Shown here: positions 262 through 61,399 of the stretch, piece by piece | How the letters are laid out: each line of letters starts with the position of its first letter | How positions within the stretch are numbered: the first letter of the stretch is position 1 | Assembly: GCA_964016885.1 (NCBI GenBank) | Contig: OZ024740.1 | Location: 294,686,001-294,750,000, forward strand | DNA: 64,000 bases | From: Eledone cirrhosa | Taxonomy: Eukaryota | Direction: 5' to 3' | The notes under the pieces: model-generated | Seen by the model: only the letters and a program-made list of their open reading frames with translations | What the model was told of the DNA's origin: nothing | Databases searched by the model: none | Position numbers and translations under genes: made by a program

Positions 262-870
262 ATATTATTCAAAATATGAAGACGTTGACATAATCAAATT
301 ATATATATTTCAGAGGTACTGTGCTGTTTTTTCAGTACGTCCTCATCAGATAAAATATATGAATTGATGTATGACATACTTCAACTGTCTTGATGGTTCA
401 ATTCCAGTATTGGCAGTGATTTATTACAACAAATCTCAATATTTATATACACAAATAATAACATGATAAACTTAAATATGATGAAGAAGAAGATGTGGAG
501 CGAGATATAAGTATAAGGAGAGGGTGAGTATGAGAAAATGTAAGAAGAAATAAATAAATAAATTTATTTATTTCTTCTTACATTTTCTCATACTCACCCC
601 CTCCTTATATCTCGCTCCACATCCTCTTCTTCATCATATTTAAGTTTATCATGTTATTATTTGTGATATATAAATATTGAGATTTGTTGTAATAAATCAC
701 TGCCAATACTGGAATTGAACCATCAAGACAGTTGAAGTATGTCATACATCAATTCATATATTTTATCTGATGAGGACGTACTGAAAAAACAGCACAGTAC
801 CTCTGAAATATATATAATAAAACATTTTGATTATGTGAACGTCTTCATTTATTAATATTTTGAATAATAT
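262..870. repeat. Long foldback (inverted repeat, ~300-bp arms, almost no spacer), probably derived from a Penelope-like element end
   Basis: 262-560 is the reverse complement of ~563-870 with a few indels (e.g. cagaggtactgtgctgttttttcagtacgtcctcatcag vs ctgatgaggacgtactgaaaaaacagcacagtacctctg); carries a hammerhead motif. Confidence 0.9.
761..822 (+). ncRNA. Type I hammerhead ribozyme motif
   Basis: ttttat-CTGATGA-ggacgtactg(loop)cagtacctct-GAAA-tatata-TA-ataaaa: stem I ttttat/ataaaa, 10-position stem II with one mismatch, self-complementary stem III. Confidence 0.75.
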
Positions 871-6479: not shown

Positions 6480-7857
6480 ACATCTGATTCCCCACTTTTC
6501 CCTGCTTGCAAGGGTTGGACAGGTCCTATTCAGCACAGCATCTCTCCACTTGTCACGGTCCTTCGTCATCTCCTCCGTGAGTTTCAGCGATCTGAGGTCT
6601 GCTCTCACCACCTCCGCCCATGTTTTTCATGGTCTACCTCTACTAGGATTTCTTGGCACTTCCTTACCCAGCGGTCATCCTCCATGCGCATCATATGTCC
6701 ATACCATCTCAGTCTTCTCTCCCGCACACCACAACTTATCCCTTTTATATCCAGTTTCTTTCTCAACTCATCCATGCTTGGTCACGCACATTGACATTGC
6801 ACATCCAACGGAGCATACTTGCTTCATTTCTCTCCAGCCGTCGCACATCCTCTGCAGTTACTGCCCATGTCTCACTACCATGCAGCATCGCGCATCTCAC
6901 ACAGGCATCATATAACCGTCCTTTCGTACACAGGGAGAAACCCTTCTTTGTCAACAGAAGAAGCAGCTCCCTAAACTTCTTCCAACCCGTCCTGATTCTA
7001 GATACTATGACCTCGGAACTCCCCTCCCATGCTAATTTGATCACCTAGGTACTGGAAGCTATCAATCACTTCTATTGAACCCACCTGCATTGGGAAAATG
7101 TGTATCACTGCGATTACTACTGCCAACTTTCCCTGTACATCTACTGCATACGTAGTTTTCCCTACCCGTTAGTTTGCCTGCTATCCCACTACATCTCTTG
7201 TGTACCCAAGATCTGCATTGCGTACATTTTATGGAATTTATGCCAGTTCCTTTCCTACATATCGAACATGACCATTTCCCTGATGGAATTAGAGTATTGT
7301 CCTCTCTTCTACTTATCAACACTTTTGTCTTAGCTATGTTCACTCCCAGTCCTCTTGATTTCAACTGTTGTTTCCATAGCCAGAATTTATTCTCTATCTC
7401 CTCTACTGATTCTGCTATAAGAACCAGATCATCAGCATAGAGAAGTTCCCATGGGCATCCAGTCTTAAACTCCTCTGTTATGGCTTGGAGGACTATAATG
7501 AACAAGAGCGGTCTGAGGACGGAACCCTGATGTACACCTACTTGTATCTGGAATTCCTCACTAAACTCCATTCCTACTCTTACTTTACTGACAGCACCCC
7601 TGTACATAGCTTGCACTGTCCTCACAAGCCATTCCTCTACATCTAGTTTCCTTAGGGACCACCAAATGACAGATCGGGGCCTTCTCTAGGTCAACAAAAG
7701 CTAAGTATAGTGGTTTATTCTTCTCTAAAAATCTCTCTTGTAGTTGCCTCACTAAGAAGAGGGCATCTGTTGTACTTTTCCGAGGCACAAAACCAAACTG
7801 CATTTCATCTAATTTGACCCTTTCTCTAATCAGTTGCGCTAATATTCTCTCTGCCAC
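6480..7857 (-). mobile_element. 5'-truncated RTE-clade LINE (RT C-terminal half, frameshifted)
   Basis: ORFs 7857-7585 (QFGF..STTDA..AFVDLEKA), 7625-7062 (GVHQGSVL, LLYADDLVL, Cys-rich CSIC..CTQC..HKRC..CSRC), 7044-6763 (LYDACVRCAMLHGSETW) and a downstream W.GH-type/GRPRKTW segment. Confidence 0.92.
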
Positions 7858-10815: not shown

Positions 10816-11548
10816 TGTAGCGAAATCTGTCCACACCTTGACCCCTGGGTGACATTTAACGGTCATTTTGTGGTTTATCTCTTTTTAGGCGTCAACATAT
10901 CTAAGAGTGGATGACCTCTAAAGTTCAACCCTTTGTTCTCAAGGCTTGGAGACAGAGGAAGCAACATAGATAAATAGCCTGCATTATATTAGACCAGGCA
11001 GCAGTTCGGAGCGGTTCTTGATAGAGTAAACATGTAAAACATTTGCTTTCTACAGACTCCTTGGGGTTTTACAGACTCTTACTCTCTCTCTCCTGGTTTT
11101 ACAGACTCTTGCTTTCTCTCTTAGTTTTACAGACTCTTATTACTCTCTCTTTCACTCAATCTCTATCTCTTGGTCTCTCTCCTAACCAAGCCAGTGAAGT
11201 TCATGAAGTTTTCTTGGTAAATACAATTTAATTCTACTTTTGCAAACAAACAAAGACCATAATTATTGTGTATTTTTCGTATAGTTTCGGCGAAAGCTAT
11301 TTTCAATAAATTAATAATATAGCAGATTGGTGTCATCGTGGTTCATTTATATATATTCATTTTCTGCGTGGTCAAGGAACTATCATAGCATCATCATCTT
11401 AATGAACACTTACTTACCTGCACACATGCAACCTCTGGTCACACTGTATCACACAACAGTGACCACATGACATAGCAAGCTACAAGTGAGCACACACATG
11501 CAACAAACAAATCAACACCACAACATGACCCATTAAACAATCGCTATA
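10816..11548. mobile_element. Probable solo LTR inserted into a 40-bp minisatellite
   Basis: Termini TGTAGCGA...TCGCTATA (TG..CA-like), 4-bp duplication aggt at 10812-10815 and 11549-11552, minisatellite units on both sides. Confidence 0.6.
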
Positions 11549-11960
11549 AGGTGAACTATAGAAGCTGTGTACACAGATATTGTTAGTAAGGGGAACTATA
11601 GAAGCTGAGTACGCAGATACTGTTAGTAAGGGGAACTATAGAAGCTGTGTACATATATACTGTTAGTAAGGGGAACTATAAGAGCTGAGTACACAGATTC
11701 TGTTAGTAAGGGGAACTATAAGAGCTGAGTACACAGATTCTGTTAGTAAGGGGAACTATAGGAGCTGAGTACACAGATTCTGTTAGTAAGGGGAACTATA
11801 GAAGCTGTGTACACAGATACTGTTACTAAGGGGAACTACAGATACTGTTACTAAGGGGAACTATAGAAGCTGTGTACATAGATACTGTTAGTAAGGGGAA
11901 CTATAGGAGCTGTGTACACAGATACTGTTAGTAAAAAGAACTATAGAAGCCACAGATATT
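11549..11960. repeat. 40-bp minisatellite (about 10 units; about 2 more at 10735-10815)
   Basis: Unit tgttagtaaggggaactatagaagctgtgtacacagatac. Confidence 0.95.
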
Positions 11961-12189
11961 GTGAGAGCAATGATTTCAGTGAAGAATTTAACATACAAGT
12001 AGGTGTCAATTGGGGCTTGATTCTTTGCTCCCTCCTGTTTATTATAATTCCTTAGGCCATAACAGAGGAATTTTATGGCTGGCTGTCTGTGAGAACTTCT
12101 GTACATCAATAATCCAGTTCTCAAGTTGAATCTATCAAAGTATTAGAGATATGGGAGTCAAACTCCACCATTGATTTGTACTATCACTT

Positions 12190-21724: not shown

Positions 21725-22134
21725 TATATATATATATATACACAACAAACGTTTTAAATCTATCTCCATTGCTAAAGTAGGGGTTATCCATGAGGCCTCA
21801 TGACACTTTATTTTATCCTATCCTCTGTACCCAACACCAATACACTGGCTTTCATTTCCCCTTACATCATCTTTAGCCACATCTTTCTTGGTCTTCCTCT
21901 TTCTCTACTTCATTCCACATTCATTTCTATCATTCCCCTCACTTTCATCTTTTCTGAACACATTACTCAACCATCTTATTCCATTATTCCTCTTCACAAC
22001 ATTCATCAATGGTTCTATTCCCATCATCCTCTTCAATTCATATAACCGTTTACAGCAATTTGAGACAACCAATTCAAATGAGTAGTTTGTTTAAACTTTG
22101 ATTAGGGATGTAGTTATCAAATATTTTGTTCCTT

Positions 22135-22313
22135 GTAAGAGTAAAGGCATTTTTGGTCTCTCATGTGAGAGTAAAGACATTTTGAGCCTCTCATGTGGGA
22201 GTAAAGGCGTTTTGAGCCTCTCATGTAGGAGTAAAGGCATTTTGAGCCTCTCATGTAGGAGTAAAGGCATTTTGAGCCTCTCATGTAGGAGTAAAGGCAT
22301 TTTGAGCCTCTCA
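22135..22313. repeat. 30-bp minisatellite, about 6 units
   Basis: Unit ggagtaaaggcattttgagcctctcatgta. Confidence 0.95.
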
Positions 22314-23794
22314 ACTATTTTTTAGTGGCAACATGGATTGTTGATTTCAATTTATTAGTTTAAACTAATAGTTCTCACATAAAATATGCATTATTTATTC
22401 TTCAGTTATAATTCTGATCTCCACTATCACTCTTAGTTAAAGTAGTGAATGATTCACTTGGGAAGATGTATTCAATAAGAAAAATACTAGATTAAAGAGA
22501 TATTTATTGGGGATGGCGACAGATAATTTTATATCAATGTTTCTAGGAAGCAAACGTTTGTCTTCTTGGGATAAACAATTTAATATTCAATGTTTTGTTA
22601 CACTGTCATAAAGTGAGACTTACTATATAATTTCCACTACTTATAAGAAAACAAAATGATGAATCTACATTCATTATCTTGAAGCAATGATTGTCTTGGG
22701 CATTATATTATGTTAGTAGGTCTTTAAAATCCACACTAGAATTTGTTGACTACCATTAAACTTAGCAAGATATTGGAAAGAAATGAGTGGCAAGATGTAT
22801 TTAAAGTTGGTAGCAGCAGTATACTTAGATGGAGTTGGTAAGAACTAAAATAATGAGCTAAAGTTAAATTGTTAAGAATTATAATGGAAGTAGGTGAACA
22901 TAGATATTTGCTAACAATGTTAAATAAAACAGCCACCGAATATCATCCATCAAGCATGTACCAATAAGCATCAGCAAAAAGATGAGTGCATTGATTTTTC
23001 TCAAAGAAAGCCTTCTTTAATATGGTAGCAATGGAGTACAGTGAGGCAGAATTGAGTGCCTGATACGAAGAAAGAATCAAGTACTTACCACCATCATTGG
23101 GCAATCATCCTAAAACTCTAGGAAGATAAATGTTATATAGTATAATTCACCATACACGATCAGTGTAAAAAACTAGAGTTGTAAAAAGACTAAGCTATAC
23201 CCCCTACAAGGTAAAGACCTAGAGAAAAACCTTTTATAGTGTTGATATCTCCATCAGCAACACATCAAAATGTTACATATGTCTTAATGAGCACTTCTAC
23301 AAAAACCACCTGCCCTTGTACACAGTTCATTTCATTATAACCAGAACACTTTCAAACATATTTAGAAATAGAGACAAAAGAGAGGCAACAAATATAACTC
23401 TGGAGAGTGCTAGATAATGTACAGGCATTGAGGAATGGATTAAAGGGATACCCTGCTATAATCTTAAATAAATAAAAATAAAGGTGCAAGATAGATGATA
23501 AGGACAGAAAACTCCAATGATTTACAATGCTAACAGTCACTCTATATCTTTTGTTTCACACTTTAAGAACATAAATCCTATTTATCCCACACATATATAC
23601 ACATATGATGAGCTTCTCTGCACAGGTTCTCTTGTCTACCAAATTACCCTCACAAAATATGGGGGTGGAGGAAAATAAAGTACCAGTAAAATCCTGGGGT
23701 TGATTTAATTGACTTTTCCAACTCCTCAAAAATTGCTGGTCTTGGACATAAATTAGAAATCAATATTTCTAAAGTGATTCAGCTGTTAAAGTTA

Positions 23795-24348
23795 AAGAAA
23801 AGGTAGACAAGAGCTGTATGAAGGCGAGGCAGAGAAAAGGTAGACAAGGGCTGTATGATGGTGAGACAGAGAAAAGGTAGACAAGGGCTGTATGATGGTG
23901 AGACAGAGAAAAGGTAGACAAGGGGTGTATGAAGATAGACAAGAGCTGTATGAAGGTGAGACAGAGAAAAGGTAGACAAGGGCTGTATGATGGTGAGACA
24001 GAGAAAAGGTAGACAAGGGCTGTATGAAGGTAGACAAGAGCTGTATGAAGGTGAGACAAAGAAAAGGTAGACAAGGGCTGTATGATGGTGAGACAGAGAA
24101 AAGGTAGACAAGGGCTGTATGAAGGCGAGACAGAGAAAAGGTAGACAAGGGGTGTATGAAGGCGAGACAGAGAAAAGGTAGATAAGGGCTGTATGAAGGT
24201 GAGACAGAGAAAAGGTAGATAAGGGCTGTATGAAGGTGAGACAGAGAAAAGGTAGACAAGGGCTGTATGATGGTGAGACAGAGAAAAGGTAGACAAGGGC
24301 TGTATGAAGGCGAGACAGAGAAAAGGTAGACAAGGGGTGTATGAAGGT
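23795..24348. repeat. 39-bp minisatellite, about 14 units
   Basis: Unit aaggtagacaagggctgtatgaaggtgagacagagaaa; produces stop-free minus-strand ORFs in all three frames. Confidence 0.95.
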
Positions 24349-24417
24349 AAGTAATTATATCAAAGAATAATAGCAATTATAAAAAAAGTTAGAGAAAAGA
24401 AAATTATGCAAACTTAC

Positions 24418-33865: not shown

Positions 33866-36505
33866 CAGTGGTCGCCAACATGGGTTCCGCGGAACCTTGG
33901 GGTTCCGTAAAACAATTCTAAATAAGAACACGTTACATTCTGTTGTACTTTGCACAGAAAATATAACGCCTGTAAAGTTTCGACTACTAACAAAGGTAAT
34001 TTTGTATTCCATGCATACACTATAAACTTTGCCACACAATTATGTATTCATTTGATGACATCTGCATTCACAATTGAGAAATTACTTTATATAATAAATA
34101 TATATGTCCACAAACATTTGACTAAACTTTATTTGTTCCAATCTAATATATGTTTAACGCAGCCTAAAGCCTTCTTATATTATATCTAACTTTGAGTCAA
34201 AATAGATAGAAGATATCTGAATTAATTTCCAATACCATCGTCACATTTTCTACACTATCAGCTGATTTTCATTTTTTGCACCTATATTTACATTACCAAT
34301 AATATTTAATACGACCCTAAAGTAGTATATGCAGGAAGTGCTGGACTCTGAAAGAAATTTCTTCTAGTTGTTTATAAATTTGCACCTTTTTCAGTAACCC
34401 CTAATATTTTAATATTATTATAAGACTTTAAATAATATGTTTGCCATCCTAAAATGGAGAATTTCAATTTTTTAAATTAAATTTTTTTTAACTAGTTAAG
34501 TTTTTCCAAATATCTAAAATTAAAGTTAATTTAAGTACTTTTTGTAATAAAAAAAAAAAAATTTCTCTTGTTTATTAATGTCATATTAAAAATGTTAACT
34601 GTAGATAAATAACATTGATATGATGTCTACTGCAAAGAAGCTGAAGTTAGACAGTGGTGTGATGATTATGTTAGATATAGATTTCAAAAAGCTGACACTA
34701 AAAAAGATACACCAGATCAGCCCATGTGTTTGCTATGTTCAAAAGTTCTATCAAATAGCTGTTTAAATCCTGCAAAACTTAAAAGACACCTTGATACTAA
34801 TCACACCAATGATAAAAACAAGTCACTGGAATACTTTACATGAAACAACATCAAAAAATCACAAGCTAATATGTATGACTTGTTTTGGAAAAAGTCAGAT
34901 AGAAATAAAGCTTTAACAAGAACATCTTTTGAAATTTCACATTTGATTGGTAAAAACAAGAAACCATTTACATTAGGAGAACAGCCAAGTATAAAAATTG
35001 CTACAGAGAATTTTTTTGAAAGCTGCAGTATTAAGGACAAAGAAAAATTAAGCCAGTTACCATTGTCAGCAAATACCGTAAAAAGAAGGATAATTGATAT
35101 TTCTTCTGATATAGAAAATCAGATACTAACTGCACTAAAGAAAAGCACATGTTTTGGTCTGCAAGTGGACGAAACTACGGATATTAATAACAAGGATCAA
35201 TTAATTTGCTATGTACAGTTTGTAGACCTTGATAAAAAAGAATTAGTAGAAGAGTATTCGTTTTGTCTGGTATTAGACATCACAACTAAAGGTCAAGATA
35301 TATTCAATAAAATTGAAGAGTATTTTTTAAAAATTGGTGTATCTTGGAGCAAGTTGACTTCAATAACAACAGATGGAGCAGCTGCAATGACTGGTAAAAA
35401 TTCTGGTTTGATTGCAAAAATTAAAGAACAGACCCCAAATTGTATTTCAAATCATTGTATGATTCATCGAGAGGTTTTGTGTTCAAAAAAATTCAAAGAC
35501 AGAGATGCTCAAATATTAAATGACCAGCTGAAAGACATTGTCAAAATTATCAATTTGATCCATGCAAGAGCAAAAAATTCTAGAATGTTTGAATCTATTT
35601 GTGAATCTTCTGGAAGTAATTATAATAGATTGTTATTGAACAATGATGTGCGTTGGCTGTCTTTTGGGGATGCTATGAAGAGAGATTTTGAACTGAGAAA
35701 AGAAATAATAGTTTTTCTAAAAAAACAGAATGATGAAAAAGCAAGTGTATTAGAAACCAATGAATGGAATGTGCAACTCACTTATTTAGTAGACATTTTT
35801 GGTGAACTGAACAAACTAAATAAGTGTTTTCAGGGTAACAATGCAGATATTTTTTACTTCAATCAATTTTATTACATATTTTCAATCAAAATTAAACATC
35901 TTTATACAAAGAATTGAATCGGACAATTACTCATTACTTTAAAACCTTGAAATAGAGCTTAAAAAGAGAGAAAATTTTGACTCCAGCAATCTAAAGAAGA
36001 TTATTCTTTCTCATTTAAATGTGCTTTCCACAAGTTTTTCAGATTATTTTGACTTGATGGAAAAAGATATTGTTAGCGGAAATTTATTGATAAAAAATCC
36101 GTTCACCGAGATCGAGCAGTTAGTGTCAGAAAATGACGCTGGAAATTGTAAAAATTTACTACCTGCACAATGCTTACATCAGTTGATGGATTTGAATTCA
36201 AACGAAGACCTGAAAGTGATATTCGAAAGCAGAAAGAAAGAACTATGGATCAACTTATTCTTGATTGGGTAGTTTAATGAAATCAGCCAACTTGCATTGA
36301 AATATTTGACTTTATTCCCATCTAGCTACTTGTGCGAAAAAGGGTTTTCGCAGTTGGTAGAAATCAGCACAAAGCAGATGAATAAACTGTCAGCAATTGA
36401 CGAGTGTTTATTATTTTTTTTGAAAAGTTTTGTATTGTATAGGTTCCGGGAAGAATTCAAAATATTTAGAGGGTTCCTCGGTTTTAGAAAGGTTGGCAAC
36501 CACTG
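33866..36505 (+). mobile_element. Full-length hAT (Buster/Charlie-type) DNA transposon
   Basis: TIRs cagtggtcgccaac / gttggcaaccactg; 8-bp TSD atttagag / acttagag (nnnTAnnn); internal transposase. Confidence 0.93.
34620..36420 (+). pseudogene. Disrupted Buster-type hAT transposase (ZBED5/SCAND3/FAM200-like)
   Basis: BED-like finger PMCLLCSKVLSN..PAKLKRHLDTNH, stop near 34841, ORF 34871-35917 with LQVDETTD, TTDGAAAM, HCMIHRE, VRWLS, then frameshifted C-terminus FPSSYLCEKGFS. Confidence 0.9.
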
Positions 36506-41134: not shown

Positions 41135-41459
41135 TAAAATAACAGGAGGCTGGACTGGTGTAAATCCTTGAACAGTTTATTATACTATGATCATTTCAAT
41201 GACTGGGTTCCGTATGAATCCGGTGATATCATCAGGTATTCGAAATAGTCGCTTGAGGGCGACTGACTGAGGTGAAAGCAGCTAGTTGGTCAGTCGTCCT
41301 CTGTCTCTGATTTTTGGACCCATGGATTTTATATATTCCTTTGTTATATTTCAAATACCTGATGATATCACCGGATTTATACGGAACCTGGTCATTGAAA
41401 TGATCATAGTATAATAAACTTTTCAAGGATTTACACCAGTCCACCATCCTGTTATTTTA
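41135..41459. repeat. Foldback with ~112-bp arms and ~100-bp spacer, hammerhead-like motif in each arm
   Basis: 41135-41246 is the reverse complement of 41348-41459; spacer contains an additional hairpin gagggcgactgact...ggtcagtcgtcctc. Confidence 0.88.
41355..41412 (+). ncRNA. Type I hammerhead-like motif (mirror copy 41182-41239, minus)
   Basis: atac-CTGATGA-tatcaccggattt(atacg)gaacctggtcatt-GAAA-tgatca-TA-gtat; palindromic stem III ATGATCAT; base of stem II imperfect. Confidence 0.6.
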
Positions 41460-44699: not shown

Positions 44700-46550
44700 T
44701 AATCCATCATATCAAATTTGGTAAATCTACAGAGTACTTTATTTTCTTTACTTTCAAACCACTCAAAAATGGCAGTGCTGCAGTTCTATCGTGCTTATTT
44801 TGTAATGTTAGTAATCTCAAGGTTGTGCCAAATATATGCTTACTAATTAAACTTATTTCATTTTTGGAGTAGTTTATTAATCTGCACTTGCGATTAAAAA
44901 GAATATTGTCCTTATGGTTTCTAAGCATAATGTAATGGTCTATACATGAGGTGTTCTATGTAGTCTTCTATTTTTAGCTTCTGTGTTTGTGGTGTTGTAG
45001 GAGGTGGTGGTTGTGTTTTTTTGTATCTTTTGGTAAAATTGTCTGATAAGGGTTTAGAATGTATGGAAGCAACAAATTCATTTATTTTGCCTGCAAGTAT
45101 GTAATGAATATTGAGAAATTGTTTAAAAGATTTCATGTGGTTGTTTAGGATGGTTTTAAAAGAGTGGGTGTTGTGTTGGAATTTTACTTTAATTATCAAA
45201 TTGATACAATCAAATTCAAAGTTTTCAAGTTCCTTAACCTTTGAAGTACCAAACCATCTGAAGTTGTTCATGGTTGCATGATACAAAAATAGTGTATTTT
45301 AAATTGTTTATATCTATATAAACATCATAATTTTATGCAAGAACCTTTGTTATGCTATGTTCCAAATACCAGGTTAACAATGAGAAAGTTGTCTTATTAA
45401 ATCTTCCAAATTCTTGATCTTAATTATTTGAAAATCATAGGCACGGGAACACATTTGAATCCAGATTTATCTCTAAGTAATTTAGTGGAGCCCTTTCTGT
45501 GTTTGATAATGCTCCTATTACAGAGCTTTGATGTTCTTCATACAGTAGACGAGGGAATGTTTCTCCATCTTCTGCTTTGTGATCTCGGTTTCTAGAACAA
45601 TTTCCAACCAGGGGTATGTTTGGGATTATAAAAAAAAAACAAAAAAAACAACAGAAAGCATGCAGTATTTAGTTTGATACAGCTAATGATCTACTCTGTT
45701 ACTGTTTTCATGTCATTTTTTTTTTATTAGTGCAGACTTGATGATGTTCAATGGGTCATTGGATCAGGTGTGGATGTACAAAGGGATGTTGTTTGGTTTC
45801 TTGAAGAGCTCATATAATTTTGGGTTTAGTCTAAGTATGCCATTCAATTTAGGAAGTTGACTGTTGTAAAGTTTTCTTTAACTACTACCTTCAGGACGAA
45901 TTTGTCAAATATAATAATTATACATTTCCTGATGGTGCTTGCTCATGCTGTTTGAAAGCACGAGCCTATTATCTCTGTACATACTTGTTCTATTCTTCCT
46001 AGACCAGGTAGTTCTTTTGTAAAACAAGGTGAGGTCTCCTGGCATGCATGATGATCAACAAGTTGCTTCGTGTGACATCTAGAGAAATTGATGACTTTTA
46101 GAAGATTCTTATGGATAATAATCAATAATGTTGAATTAGATACGTTTGTATTTATTTTGGTTTACTTTTGAATCAAATAACTGAAAATATGTAAAGGTAT
46201 TGGGTGATTTTATTGGTTTAAATCTAGGTTTAGTTTACATAGGAAATATTTTTCTGTTAAATTCTATTTTGAAGTTAAAAATGTCATTTTAGAATCCAAC
46301 TAGTTCTTTGTTGCATAGTGGACATTTTTAGCAATTGAATCTGGGACCAGTTTCATGTGGTTTTGTTACCTTCCTTCTTGAGGATATAGGCCATTCATTG
46401 CAGATATTTTATCTCATATGTGAGGTTGCAATTTTACTTAAAAAGATGCCAAGGTTAAGAACTTACATGTAGTTAATCAGGATTGATAAAAAATGGTGTT
46501 TTAAATACAGTTATATGAGATGTAGAAGGCTAGTCGTCTGGAGTCTGTTG
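44700..46550 (-). mobile_element. Very degenerate Penelope-like RT remnant
   Basis: Minus strand near 45740-45880 reads TVNFLN...FKKPNNIPLYIHT*SNDPLNIIK, resembling the PLE RT C-terminal motif; the rest is too decayed to read. Confidence 0.5.
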
Positions 46551-53149: not shown

Positions 53150-53185
53150 TCTTCTGATGAAGGACTAGCGTCCGAAACGTTAAGA
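53150..53185 (+). ncRNA. Minimal type I hammerhead ribozyme (Penelope-type)
   Basis: tctt-CTGATGA-a-ggac(tagc)gtcc-GAAAC-GTT-aaga: intact core, 4-bp stem II, palindromic ACGT stem III, stem I tctt/aaga. Confidence 0.8.
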
Positions 53186-57750: not shown

Positions 57751-57771
57751 TTTATTAAAATAACAGATTAA

Positions 57772-57822
57772 AGTTTAAGCAAAGAATCGCTGCTTTCACC
57801 CTTAACGGGATCTTCTGAAACT
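57772..57822 (-). ncRNA. Hammerhead-like motif with variant core, in a small foldback (57758-57866)
   Basis: Minus strand agttt-CAGAAGA-t-ccc(gttaa)ggg-t-GAAA-gca(gcgattctt)tgc-TT-aaact; stems I, II and III all pair; core position 4 is A instead of U. Confidence 0.5.
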
Positions 57823-57950
57823 CAGTTTCAGAAGATCCCGTTAAGGGTGAAACTTTAATCTGTTATTCTAACAAATATTTGCTCTAGGGTTCTTATATAT
57901 TTATCCTTATCGAGCCCTCTTTGGATTTTAGTCTTCAAATTTATTATTAT

Positions 57951-59604: not shown

Positions 59605-60534
59605 TCAAGTAATTAGGTTTTCTTATTGCAATATTTTATTAGAACTATTTCAACACAGAACGAGAAATGGTTAAAAGTTTTCATACCAATATTAAAATCA
59701 TGATTTGTTTTTGTTAGATTTTTTTTTTAAAACTGAAAAGATTGTTTCATTGACAGAAATGTAATATAGGTAGGGGGGGGGGGAGGGGGGTATTTGAAAC
59801 AAGCAAACAGTCTATTTCCTCGTGATTGTCTCATTAATTAGGTCGTGGTGAGGTTTCATTTTCCTACATATAGAAATATTTATTGTAGCTACTGTTTAAA
59901 GTGCTAAGACAATCAGCTATCCATTCTTGGGCAGTAATAGATTTCAGTCTTAACAAATTTTCCATTTCACCCAAGAATAATTTTCTGTTACAACAGTAGC
60001 ATTCATAACCATTAAAATGTTGATAAGTTTAAGCCTTGGCAGGCTAATGCAGATCATTACGTAGCTTATTTCAAGTTGTTTTTTTTTCAGCCAGAAACTT
60101 GAAACAATGTTATTTAGGAAATACGAAGCCAGTTTTAAAATACATAGTAAATAGACCATTGAAAAACATGTACAAGTTGACAATTCTGTTTTATGTATCC
60201 GTTACATCATAAAAATGTCATTTCCCCCTTCAAAATTACACTTTAAGTATTGAATTTTAAAGAATGTTTGGTTCCTTAGATTTTGAGTTCAACTCTCGCC
60301 GGGGGTCGATTTGGTGTTTCATCCTTGCTAGGTTGATATAATAAATGTTTCTATTGCAGAATGCTGGATCAAGATATTGACAGTAATGCATATTCAGTAA
60401 CGAAAACATTAGTATTGTAGTCTTTCACTTTCAAACAATGTTTTTATTGACCAGACATGCATTGTGATCCTATTACAGCCGTAAACTATGTGCGTGCGCA
60501 TATATATATGCATGTATATATATATATATGTATG

Positions 60535-60872
60535 TAATATATAAGATCAAAAGATGGTTAAAGGAGTTCCATGTATTTTATTATGCGCATTTCAAAAACA
60601 AACATCATCATGCAATAATATTTGTGTTTTCATCAGATAAAACAGGAGGACATGATATGAAGGCTAAAAAACACTTGTGGATAGTGCAGTTTTAAATCAA
60701 CATATGTTGATTTAAAACTGCACTATCCACAAGTGTTTTTTAGCCTTCATATCATGTCCTCCTGTTTTATCTGATGAAAACACAAATATTATTGCATGAT
60801 GATGTTTGTTTTTGAAATGCGCATAATAAAATACATGGAACTCCTTTAACCATCTTTTGATCTTATATATTA
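60535..60872. repeat. 338-bp palindrome (169-bp arms, no spacer, no mismatch seen)
   Basis: Centre catatg at 60701-60706; arms read as exact reverse complements by eye. Confidence 0.95.
60765..60831 (+). ncRNA. Type I hammerhead ribozyme motif (mirror copy 60576-60642, minus)
   Basis: ttttat-CTGATGA-aaacacaaatatt...gatgtttgttttt-GAAA-tgcgca-TA-ataaaa; palindromic stem III ATGCGCAT. Confidence 0.8.
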
Positions 60873-61399
60873 TGTATACTCCAGTCCTACAAACTGTAGA
60901 GTGCTTCTTATCCGATATCTGCATTGCTTTATTGTACTACAATAAAACTCACCTCCTACATATATATGTATGTATATATAAACGTGTGTGATGGTGCATT
61001 GCTTAGTAGTTACGGTGTTCGGCACTTTATGTTGTCCAAGTGGCACTTTATGCCCTTGAGCAAGATACTTTACATTGCTCCAGTCTATGCAGCTGACAAA
61101 AATTAGTTGTATTTGTAATCAAAGGGCGTTGTGTTACGCCGAATCTCCCTAAGAACTACGTTAAGGCTGTTTCGTTAATCAAACAACGGGGACATCATTG
61201 AAACAGACGGAGATCCTTTCCATGTATGTTCGTATATATGTATGTATGTACGTCTCATGGTCGGATCGTTGGCGACTAAACTGGCAACCCCACCAAGGTT
61301 TCTTGGTGAGGAGGGTGACTTTGGACATAAAAACAAGACCTGTCAAAGGGTAAAGGAGCTCTTAAGAGTCAATGACCATCCAAAATCACCGGGAGAGAT

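Follow-up and report, generated by a model that had tools for sequence, protein, structure and literature searches.

A spacer-less palindrome with two outward hammerhead motifs in Eledone cirrhosa, likely composed of two 5'-truncated Penelope-like 3' ends

Minimal hammerhead ribozyme motifs have been described for metazoan Penelope-like elements (PLEs), and pairs of such motifs on opposite strands, 100-700 bp apart, were already reported in PMC4209133. For motifs of this kind, weak cleavage in dimeric form has been reported (PMC4209133; PMC6765202). For the insertion step, work with the Poseidon PLE protein (PMC11167929) documented that it cuts and extends both strands in vitro, with two start sites bounding the tail, that the start site is no different between the two strands, and that for Poseidon PAc ribozyme cleavage is not required for insertion. 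In PMC8557442, the formation of inverted ends and tail as well as the role of the ribozyme are stated as open questions, and section 11 of that work characterizes the Hydra clade of PLEs with a C-terminal endonuclease (EN+) by the motifs DKT, RW and CxCX5C, by CxxC/CxH and by the lack of CCHH.

Here, a 64-kb stretch of the E. cirrhosa genome (hereafter the window) was analysed, whose longest inverted repeat is the palindrome at 60535-60872. Its arms (60535-60703 and 60704-60872) comprise 169 nt each, are 100% complementary and are separated by a spacer of 0 nt, hence the perfect 338-bp palindrome without spacer that a preliminary description of this DNA had reported was recovered as such. The same description had taken the palindrome as the unit, which is right for the palindrome but not for the insertion: the latter is wider and asymmetric, ranging from 60537 to ~60959-60961 with extra element sequence on the right side only, and the whole is flanked by a 15-bp direct repeat. 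The ribozyme-bearing family to which the locus belongs is referred to as family A, and the features of the locus are as follows:
60522..60536, plus strand: left 15-bp copy of the putative target-site duplication, located within TA/TG microsatellite sequence (direct repeat)
60535..60703, minus strand: left arm, a 5'-truncated family A pLTR copy which ends at the tail-less end (inverted repeat, element comparison)
60574..60644, minus strand: type I hammerhead motif, C3 60636, H17 60582 (descriptor scan)
60701..60706, unstranded: CATATG, a self-complementary hexamer common to both arms; native pLTR sequence and family A stop hot spot
60704..60872, plus strand: palindromic portion of the right arm, a 5'-truncated pLTR copy (inverted repeat, element comparison)
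60763..60833, plus strand: type I hammerhead, stem I 60763-70 with 60826-33, C3 60771, palindromic stem III 60817-60824, H17 60825
60873..60961, plus strand: Penelope-type tail, right arm only, 83 nt past the usual tail-less end (~85 nt past the palindrome; L035 match)
60960..60974, plus strand: right copy of the 15-bp target-site duplication (direct repeat)

The flanking 15-mer is located inside a TA/TG microsatellite and is present three times in the window (3304, 60522 and 60960), so that a target duplication is consistent with the data but not proven; TA runs were found beside most family A loci. The palindrome is likely to represent two 5'-truncated Penelope-like 3' ends placed back to back in one insertion event, and this head-to-head structure, a known habit of Penelope-like elements, does not amount to a new ribozyme element class.

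A descriptor scan of both strands identified a complete type I hammerhead motif in each arm, as had been claimed beforehand, both motifs facing outward (C3 60771 to H17 60825 on the plus strand, C3 60636 to H17 60582 on the minus strand); with H17 at 60825, the cut after 60825 predicted in the preliminary description would be correctly placed. The CUGANGA, GAAA and UH core is present together with stems I-III, whereby stem I comprises 8 pairs with one G-U, stem II is long and stem III is the palindrome ATGCGCAT. This pattern is retained in 137 of 148 family A arms, 129 of these 137 possessing the palindromic stem III TGCGCA, and the pair G10.1-C11.1 is absent from the family A hammerhead, an A-U pair being found instead. 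Upon dinucleotide shuffling of the window (100 shuffles) a mean of 0.13 hammerhead hits was obtained, none with palindromic stem III, as compared to 3 real hits. The database part of the search that had been proposed for these motifs gave a different result from the descriptor scan, as no hammerhead model of Rfam matched at E<=1 and miRNA-type hairpin noise was all that was returned. For stem III, a self-duplex of -9.5 kcal/mol with six central pairs was computed, and the predicted local fold forms stems I and II, its stability not being above that of shuffles (z -1.4). Folding also reproduced the anticipated masking of the ribozyme by the opposite arm in read-through RNA, with a predicted unpaired probability of the core of <=0.001; unlike read-through, transcription starting at the palindrome centre would in this model yield a single-arm RNA.

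Among truncations at the cut site, ~39 of 100 listed (of 210) possess foreign upstream sequence, and ~16 of 100 listed (of 257) do so at a control site 3 nt away, both being hand counts; cut-site truncation is thus ~twofold over the control and tiny beside the 4,374 arms that end at the ATATG site described below. Within the palindrome the ribozymes are to be considered passengers whose natural job would be on the parent transcript, where they would probably dimerize via the palindromic stem III. Alternatively, cleavage may occur only with the protein of the element and be dispensable for insertion, as described in PMC11167929. A fifth hammerhead motif of the window, canonical minimal with a 4-nt palindromic stem III, is located at 53150-53181 on the plus strand, outside the listed inverted repeats.

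Throughout the 3.0-Gb assembly, the family A ribozyme pattern yielded 18,075 exact matches (9,073 + 9,002) and its reversed control 0, and the 34-nt perfect palindrome centre was found at 621 loci. Neighbour analysis was based on the first 100 family A matches, covering 28 Mb of one contig and requiring one intact motif; pairs within 8 kb were outward in 28, inward in 3 and tandem in 4 cases, and within 300 bp all of 15 pairs were outward as opposed to 0.1 expected. For four families outward versus inward counts of 28 vs 3, 13 vs 1, 11 vs 1 and 22 vs 1 were obtained, in agreement with the earlier observation that the ribozyme reads away from the centre. This orientation results from the position of the ribozyme within the element and needs no selection on the palindrome.

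The palindrome arm was identified as a hammerhead-bearing 3' pLTR that locates downstream of an ~800-aa ORF, and longer family A pairs flank ORFs of 738-821 codons. ORF-bearing parents are L031, L035, L036 and L048, of which L035 and L036 are direct pLTR-ORF-pLTR units and L048 shows the textbook layout with an inverted pLTR ahead of pLTR-ORF-pLTR. The tailed arm of the window is identical to L035 in 258 of 261 bases and to L031, L032, L036 and L048 in 250-255 of 261, while over 161 columns the window arm does not differ from the L035 3' pLTR; the derivation of the arms from Penelope-like element ends, suggested beforehand from the motif, is hence supported by the identity to an ORF-bearing copy. 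Family A arm lengths span from ~50 nt to 3.7 kb, ORF-bearing copies included. Large fold-backs of the family which are stable in the assembly comprise a 2.5-kb near-perfect palindrome (L040:748-3227), a copy with 1.9-kb arms (L032:833-6048) and a nested double palindrome (L033).

The element unit has a length of ~3.7 kb and appears to hold a single ORF encoding a reverse transcriptase (RT) followed by a C-terminal GIY-YIG endonuclease, as indicated by YRDDG and endonuclease motifs in alignment A1. The element protein P0001 possesses DKT in place of DKG, YRDDG and a CxCX5C linker, and its C-terminal endonuclease-like region is devoid of CCHH and carries CxxC and CxH near E and N. At the RWK position RWT was found in P0001 and RWI in P0002, most homologues having RWK or RWR. 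Database searching revealed 25 homologues of P0001 with 31-42% identity, and Atlas families resembling P0001 carry HTH_animal, GIY-YIG and RVT_1. A Pfam search of P0001 itself gave no hit and Pfam support among related ORFs was weak (GIY-YIG with E 0.007 on the L046 ORF; of 18 members, 1 matched RVT_1 and 1 matched GIY-YIG), whilst PDB sequence searches with P0001 and alignment A1 yielded nothing useful. These properties fit a parent that is an autonomous Penelope-like element with Hydra-clade protein motifs, the match being one to the description of the clade. Residues ~600-675 of P0001, in the interval between RT and linker, form an asparagine-rich insert which is missing from most homologues.

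The preliminary description had further suggested that the fold-backs constitute a separate non-autonomous, retrozyme-like class. To compare fold-back with long-arm copies, one arm each from 52 fold-back and 26 long-arm loci was used, loci with both kinds being excluded. On the resulting tree the two labels required 19 changes as compared to 19.4 upon shuffling (nearest-neighbour p = 0.35), at a resolution limited by 78 loci, 153-161 columns and unsettled bootstrap, and distances within and between the two classes were equal (10.2, 10.4, 10.2), with 17 of 52 fold-back arms being identical to some long arm. Partner arms of one insertion differ by a mean of 1.5 substitutions, as opposed to 11.5 for non-partners (52 pairs). 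The small differences between partners, together with the lack of label clustering, suggest that a single template gave rise to each palindrome and that this happened many times, in all subfamilies, and as palindromic copies are scattered among ORF-linked subfamilies, they were made anew at insertion rather than spread as a lineage; gene conversion could be another cause of the arm likeness. Among the first 100 family A matches 0 same-strand pairs were found within 300 bp or 3 kb, and the tandem layout of retrozymes is thus absent there. Given the lack of tree clustering, the continuous arm lengths and the identity to L035, the separate class was not borne out.

The preliminary description had also stated that the same architecture recurs, with largely unrelated sequence, at 262-870, 41135-41459 and 57758-57866. 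All three loci turned out to be stubs of further families, but two of them possess one complete motif each:
262..870, unstranded: family C stub (5,883 matches) in head-to-head layout, with a complete motif on the plus strand only, C3 767, ~74% to ORF-bearing L197
41132..41462, unstranded: family D stub (5,618 matches) in head-to-head layout, with C3 of the motifs at 41359 (plus) and 41235 (minus), 87-95% to L110
57758..57952, unstranded: family B stub (23,103 matches) in head-to-head layout, CAGAAGA (U4A), complete motif on the minus strand only, tail on the right, parent L189

At 262-870 a motif in each arm had been assumed, yet only the right one is complete, since the left one is without the 3' strand of stem I. 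At 41135-41459 a relaxed scan recovered two complete motifs, as assumed, the first pair of stem II being U-U. For 57758-57866 a CTGANGA core had been assumed, and stem III had been described as usually self-complementary, neither of which applies there: the core is CAGAAGA, stem III is long and non-palindromic, and only the left arm is complete. The family B hammerhead (57775-57823 on the minus strand, L189:826 and L189:4085) has a fixed U4A core, a U-U first stem II pair and a long non-palindromic stem III, and CAGAAGA occurs in both pLTRs of the ORF-bearing L189. U4A accounts for 23,103 matches as compared to 759 of the canonical CTGAAGA, some of the latter being created by junctions; U4A is not mentioned in the text of PMC3088659, section 8. 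Families B, C and D exhibit the same outward bias as family A and have related ORFs nearby, L110 as relative of family D holding related ORF pieces. In family C, three ribozyme starts in direct tandem with 65-nt spacing follow an inverted copy at L199:756-984, a retrozyme-like mini-array.

Comparison of the insertions revealed sharp rules. Exactly one of the two arms is tailed in 46 of the 49 head-to-head pairs whose ends could be classified, a sample drawn from the first 100 matches on one contig, next to which 18 further minus-strand ends remained without partner under the pairing rule, and of the loci with perfect centre (35 loci and the window examined) 32 of 33 classified ones possess one tail. 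The arm with the tail is the shorter one in 23 cases and the longer one in 9, the two being about equal in 14 (p=0.02; 20, 8 and 11 in a second classification), a modest bias in which the nested L033 was counted twice and the two scripts disagreed on L133 and L142, assigning them to opposite classes. Several tailed arms comprise 50-100 nt with little beyond the tail. As to the inner ends, 4,374 of 13,117 arms, i.e., about a third, depart from the native sequence directly after CATAT, both junction patterns demanding A or T at their final position, and the first 100 of the remaining arms include 16 perfect palindromes. A cap signature after CATAT was considered as well (C 38, T 17 and A 45 in 100 listed junctions, hand count) and is not claimed, as many of the Cs result from the partner arm.

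In twin priming as known for L1, a single RNA is primed from both target ends, the resulting cDNAs being joined head to head through microhomology. A corresponding event on one RNA, with the cDNA ends annealing at a short self-complementary site, is considered the probable cause of the head-to-head joining described here. The two-strand cutting and extension and the two start sites documented for the Poseidon protein in vitro (PMC11167929) speak in favour of it. In this mechanism, a TA-rich target would be nicked by the GIY-YIG endonuclease on its two strands, at a distance of 15 bp, whereupon priming would take place at the tail end from one nick and 83 nt farther upstream from the other; two start sites 83 nt apart imply exactly one tailed arm. 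The tail-primed enzyme would trail and thus may stop early more often, or it may displace the leading cDNA. The pile-up site ATATG may mark where a short RNA initiated in the pLTR begins, or else a strong stop, and its candidacy as transcription start is founded on the internal promoter of the Penelope pLTR (PMC2377424). Two cDNAs ending with CATAT could then pair via ATAT, giving rise to the spacer-less CATATG centre. Twin priming hence explains the one-tail, the shorter-tailed-arm and the single-stop rules, which are possibly new at genome scale; since strand bias was not seen in PMC11167929, the strict one-tail rule is not directly explained by the work presented there. No printed twin-priming account of PLE inversions was found among titles and abstract openings of the open-access literature.

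The same element could also obtain its second arm by self-priming (snap-back) of the cDNA or antisense template, with the endonuclease trimming one tail, an explanation that is doubtful but deserves some weight. Arkhipova et al. (PMC3846280) explained such junctions by self-priming with an antisense strand as template, PMC8557442 ascribed the tail to endonuclease resolution, and the near-identical arms as well as the internal microhomology of up to 16 nt used at L050, L163 and some other junctions would be in line with it. However, a target-attached cDNA copying itself cannot give a tail to the shorter arm only, the arrangement most often seen (23 vs 9), and for a zero-spacer centre a hairpin loop of <=2 nt would be needed; an unattached hairpin trimmed later by the endonuclease could yield identical products. 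Another possibility concerns the template: palindromes or 260-nt solo pLTRs might be transcribed themselves from an internal promoter and serve as main donors of new short copies, constituting a non-autonomous class which uses the Hydra protein in trans. The very strong stop at one site, the solo copies L132, L135, L137 and L148 that end at the hot spot too, the internal promoter mentioned above (PMC2377424) and the existence of such PLE derivatives (PMC8557442 section 10; bioRxiv 10.64898/2026.07.22.740005) speak for it. Yet a palindrome lineage was not detected (19 vs 19.4 changes, p=0.35, 17 of 52 equal to a long arm), the centres differ widely among copies and the same short RNA is obtainable from the 3' pLTR of full elements, which makes this possibility improbable.

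Explanations outside of Penelope-like insertion have far less in their favour. No read or contig bridging the palindrome locus and no empty site was found in a search that skipped the repeats at both ends, and the read runs X1-X3 may come from the sample of the assembly itself, so that a fold-back artefact of library or assembly has to be considered. This is very improbable in view of the unique flanks on both sides, the one-sided tail, the 15-bp duplication, a centre common to 621 loci (many of them with diverged arms), an 83-nt short-read contig across the centre (60665-60747, depth 37.8; X1 may be the sample of the assembly) and the many joints that begin at 60701-60705; perfect palindromes are retained by the hundreds in this assembly. 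Inverted repeats within a target duplication would also be in line with a DNA fold-back element or a MITE that carries ribozymes by chance, but the asymmetric ends, arm lengths continuous up to whole ORFs and retroelement arms leave it hardly credible. Returning to twin priming, its most far-reaching form would be that nearly all insertions arise by coupled twin priming of one RNA at two fixed start sites, that short capped pLTR RNAs started at CATATG give rise to spacer-less double-ribozyme palindromes, each with two back-to-back promoters for the next template, and that the U4A sister family (>23,000 copies) either represents a new natural variant that is active or proves cleavage to be dispensable; this extension is put forward tentatively, as we lean against its holding in full.

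Apart from these loci, the window contains at 45734-45985 (minus strand) what is probably a further decayed PLE, with weak similarity to a Hydra-like RT in tblastn (E 1e-4), and at 34844-35917 (plus strand) a 357-codon frame with DUF4371, a domain known from hAT-type transposases. A LINE-like fragment with RVT_1 and PHD finger locates to 7062-7685 (minus strand), minisatellites were identified at 23726-24396 (37 nt), 11507-11983 (40 nt) and 22104-22343 (30 nt), and several dispersed SINE-like families are present.

The structure itself is ordinary for Penelope-like elements and the value of the findings is that of a data set: ~18,000 ribozyme copies, a young family with ORFs open over ~800 codons and sharp rules make twin priming versus self-priming directly testable. 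If the far-reaching form of twin priming outlined above holds, these genomic fossils would record the unsolved step of Penelope-like transposition. When compared to L1 twin priming, as this mechanism is generally understood, tailed arms of 50-100 nt resemble the L1-type products, whereas here both start sites are fixed, the cDNAs usually overlap and the ribozyme region becomes duplicated. With EN-bearing PLEs (PMC8557442; PMC3846280; PMC2377424) the insertion unit shares 5'-truncation, partial tandems, the inverted 5'-truncated head-to-head copy, junction palindromes, the one-ended tail and TA-repeat targets; it differs in a tail of 83 nt as opposed to the published 30-40 and in that here a single hot spot limits both arms to 260 nt, yielding hundreds of spacer-less palindromes. 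Likewise, DKT, RW, the CxCX5C linker, the lack of CCHH, the pLTR hammerhead and the (TA)n insertion are features of the Hydra clade (PMC8557442), which is however described there as "generally" <3 kb, as compared to ~3.7 kb here, and from which RWT/RWI in place of RWK deviates. PMC8557442 describes few non-cnidarian families, in contrast to the tens of thousands of copies found here, and a Hydra-type clade can thus be a major repeat class. The asparagine-rich insert of P0001 recalls the N-rich inserts of rotifer Penelopes (PMC3846280).

As for the ribozyme, the type I core, the long stem II and the palindromic stem III correspond to the minimal hammerheads of metazoan PLEs (PMC4209133), from which family A differs by A-U instead of G10.1-C11.1 and by an 8-bp stem I, and family B by its fixed U4A core and long stem III. 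Non-LTR retrozymes (bioRxiv 10.64898/2026.07.22.740005) are similarly devoid of an ORF, PLE-derived and equipped with a type I hammerhead, but are by definition direct tandem repeats, whereas an inverted pair without a lineage of its own was found here. Poseidon PAc (PMC11167929), finally, shares two RT start sites bounding the tail and AT-rich cleavage of both strands; there, the ribozyme overlaps the ORF start, whereas here it is located ~220 nt upstream of it, and no derivation of inverted insertions was found in PMC11167929.
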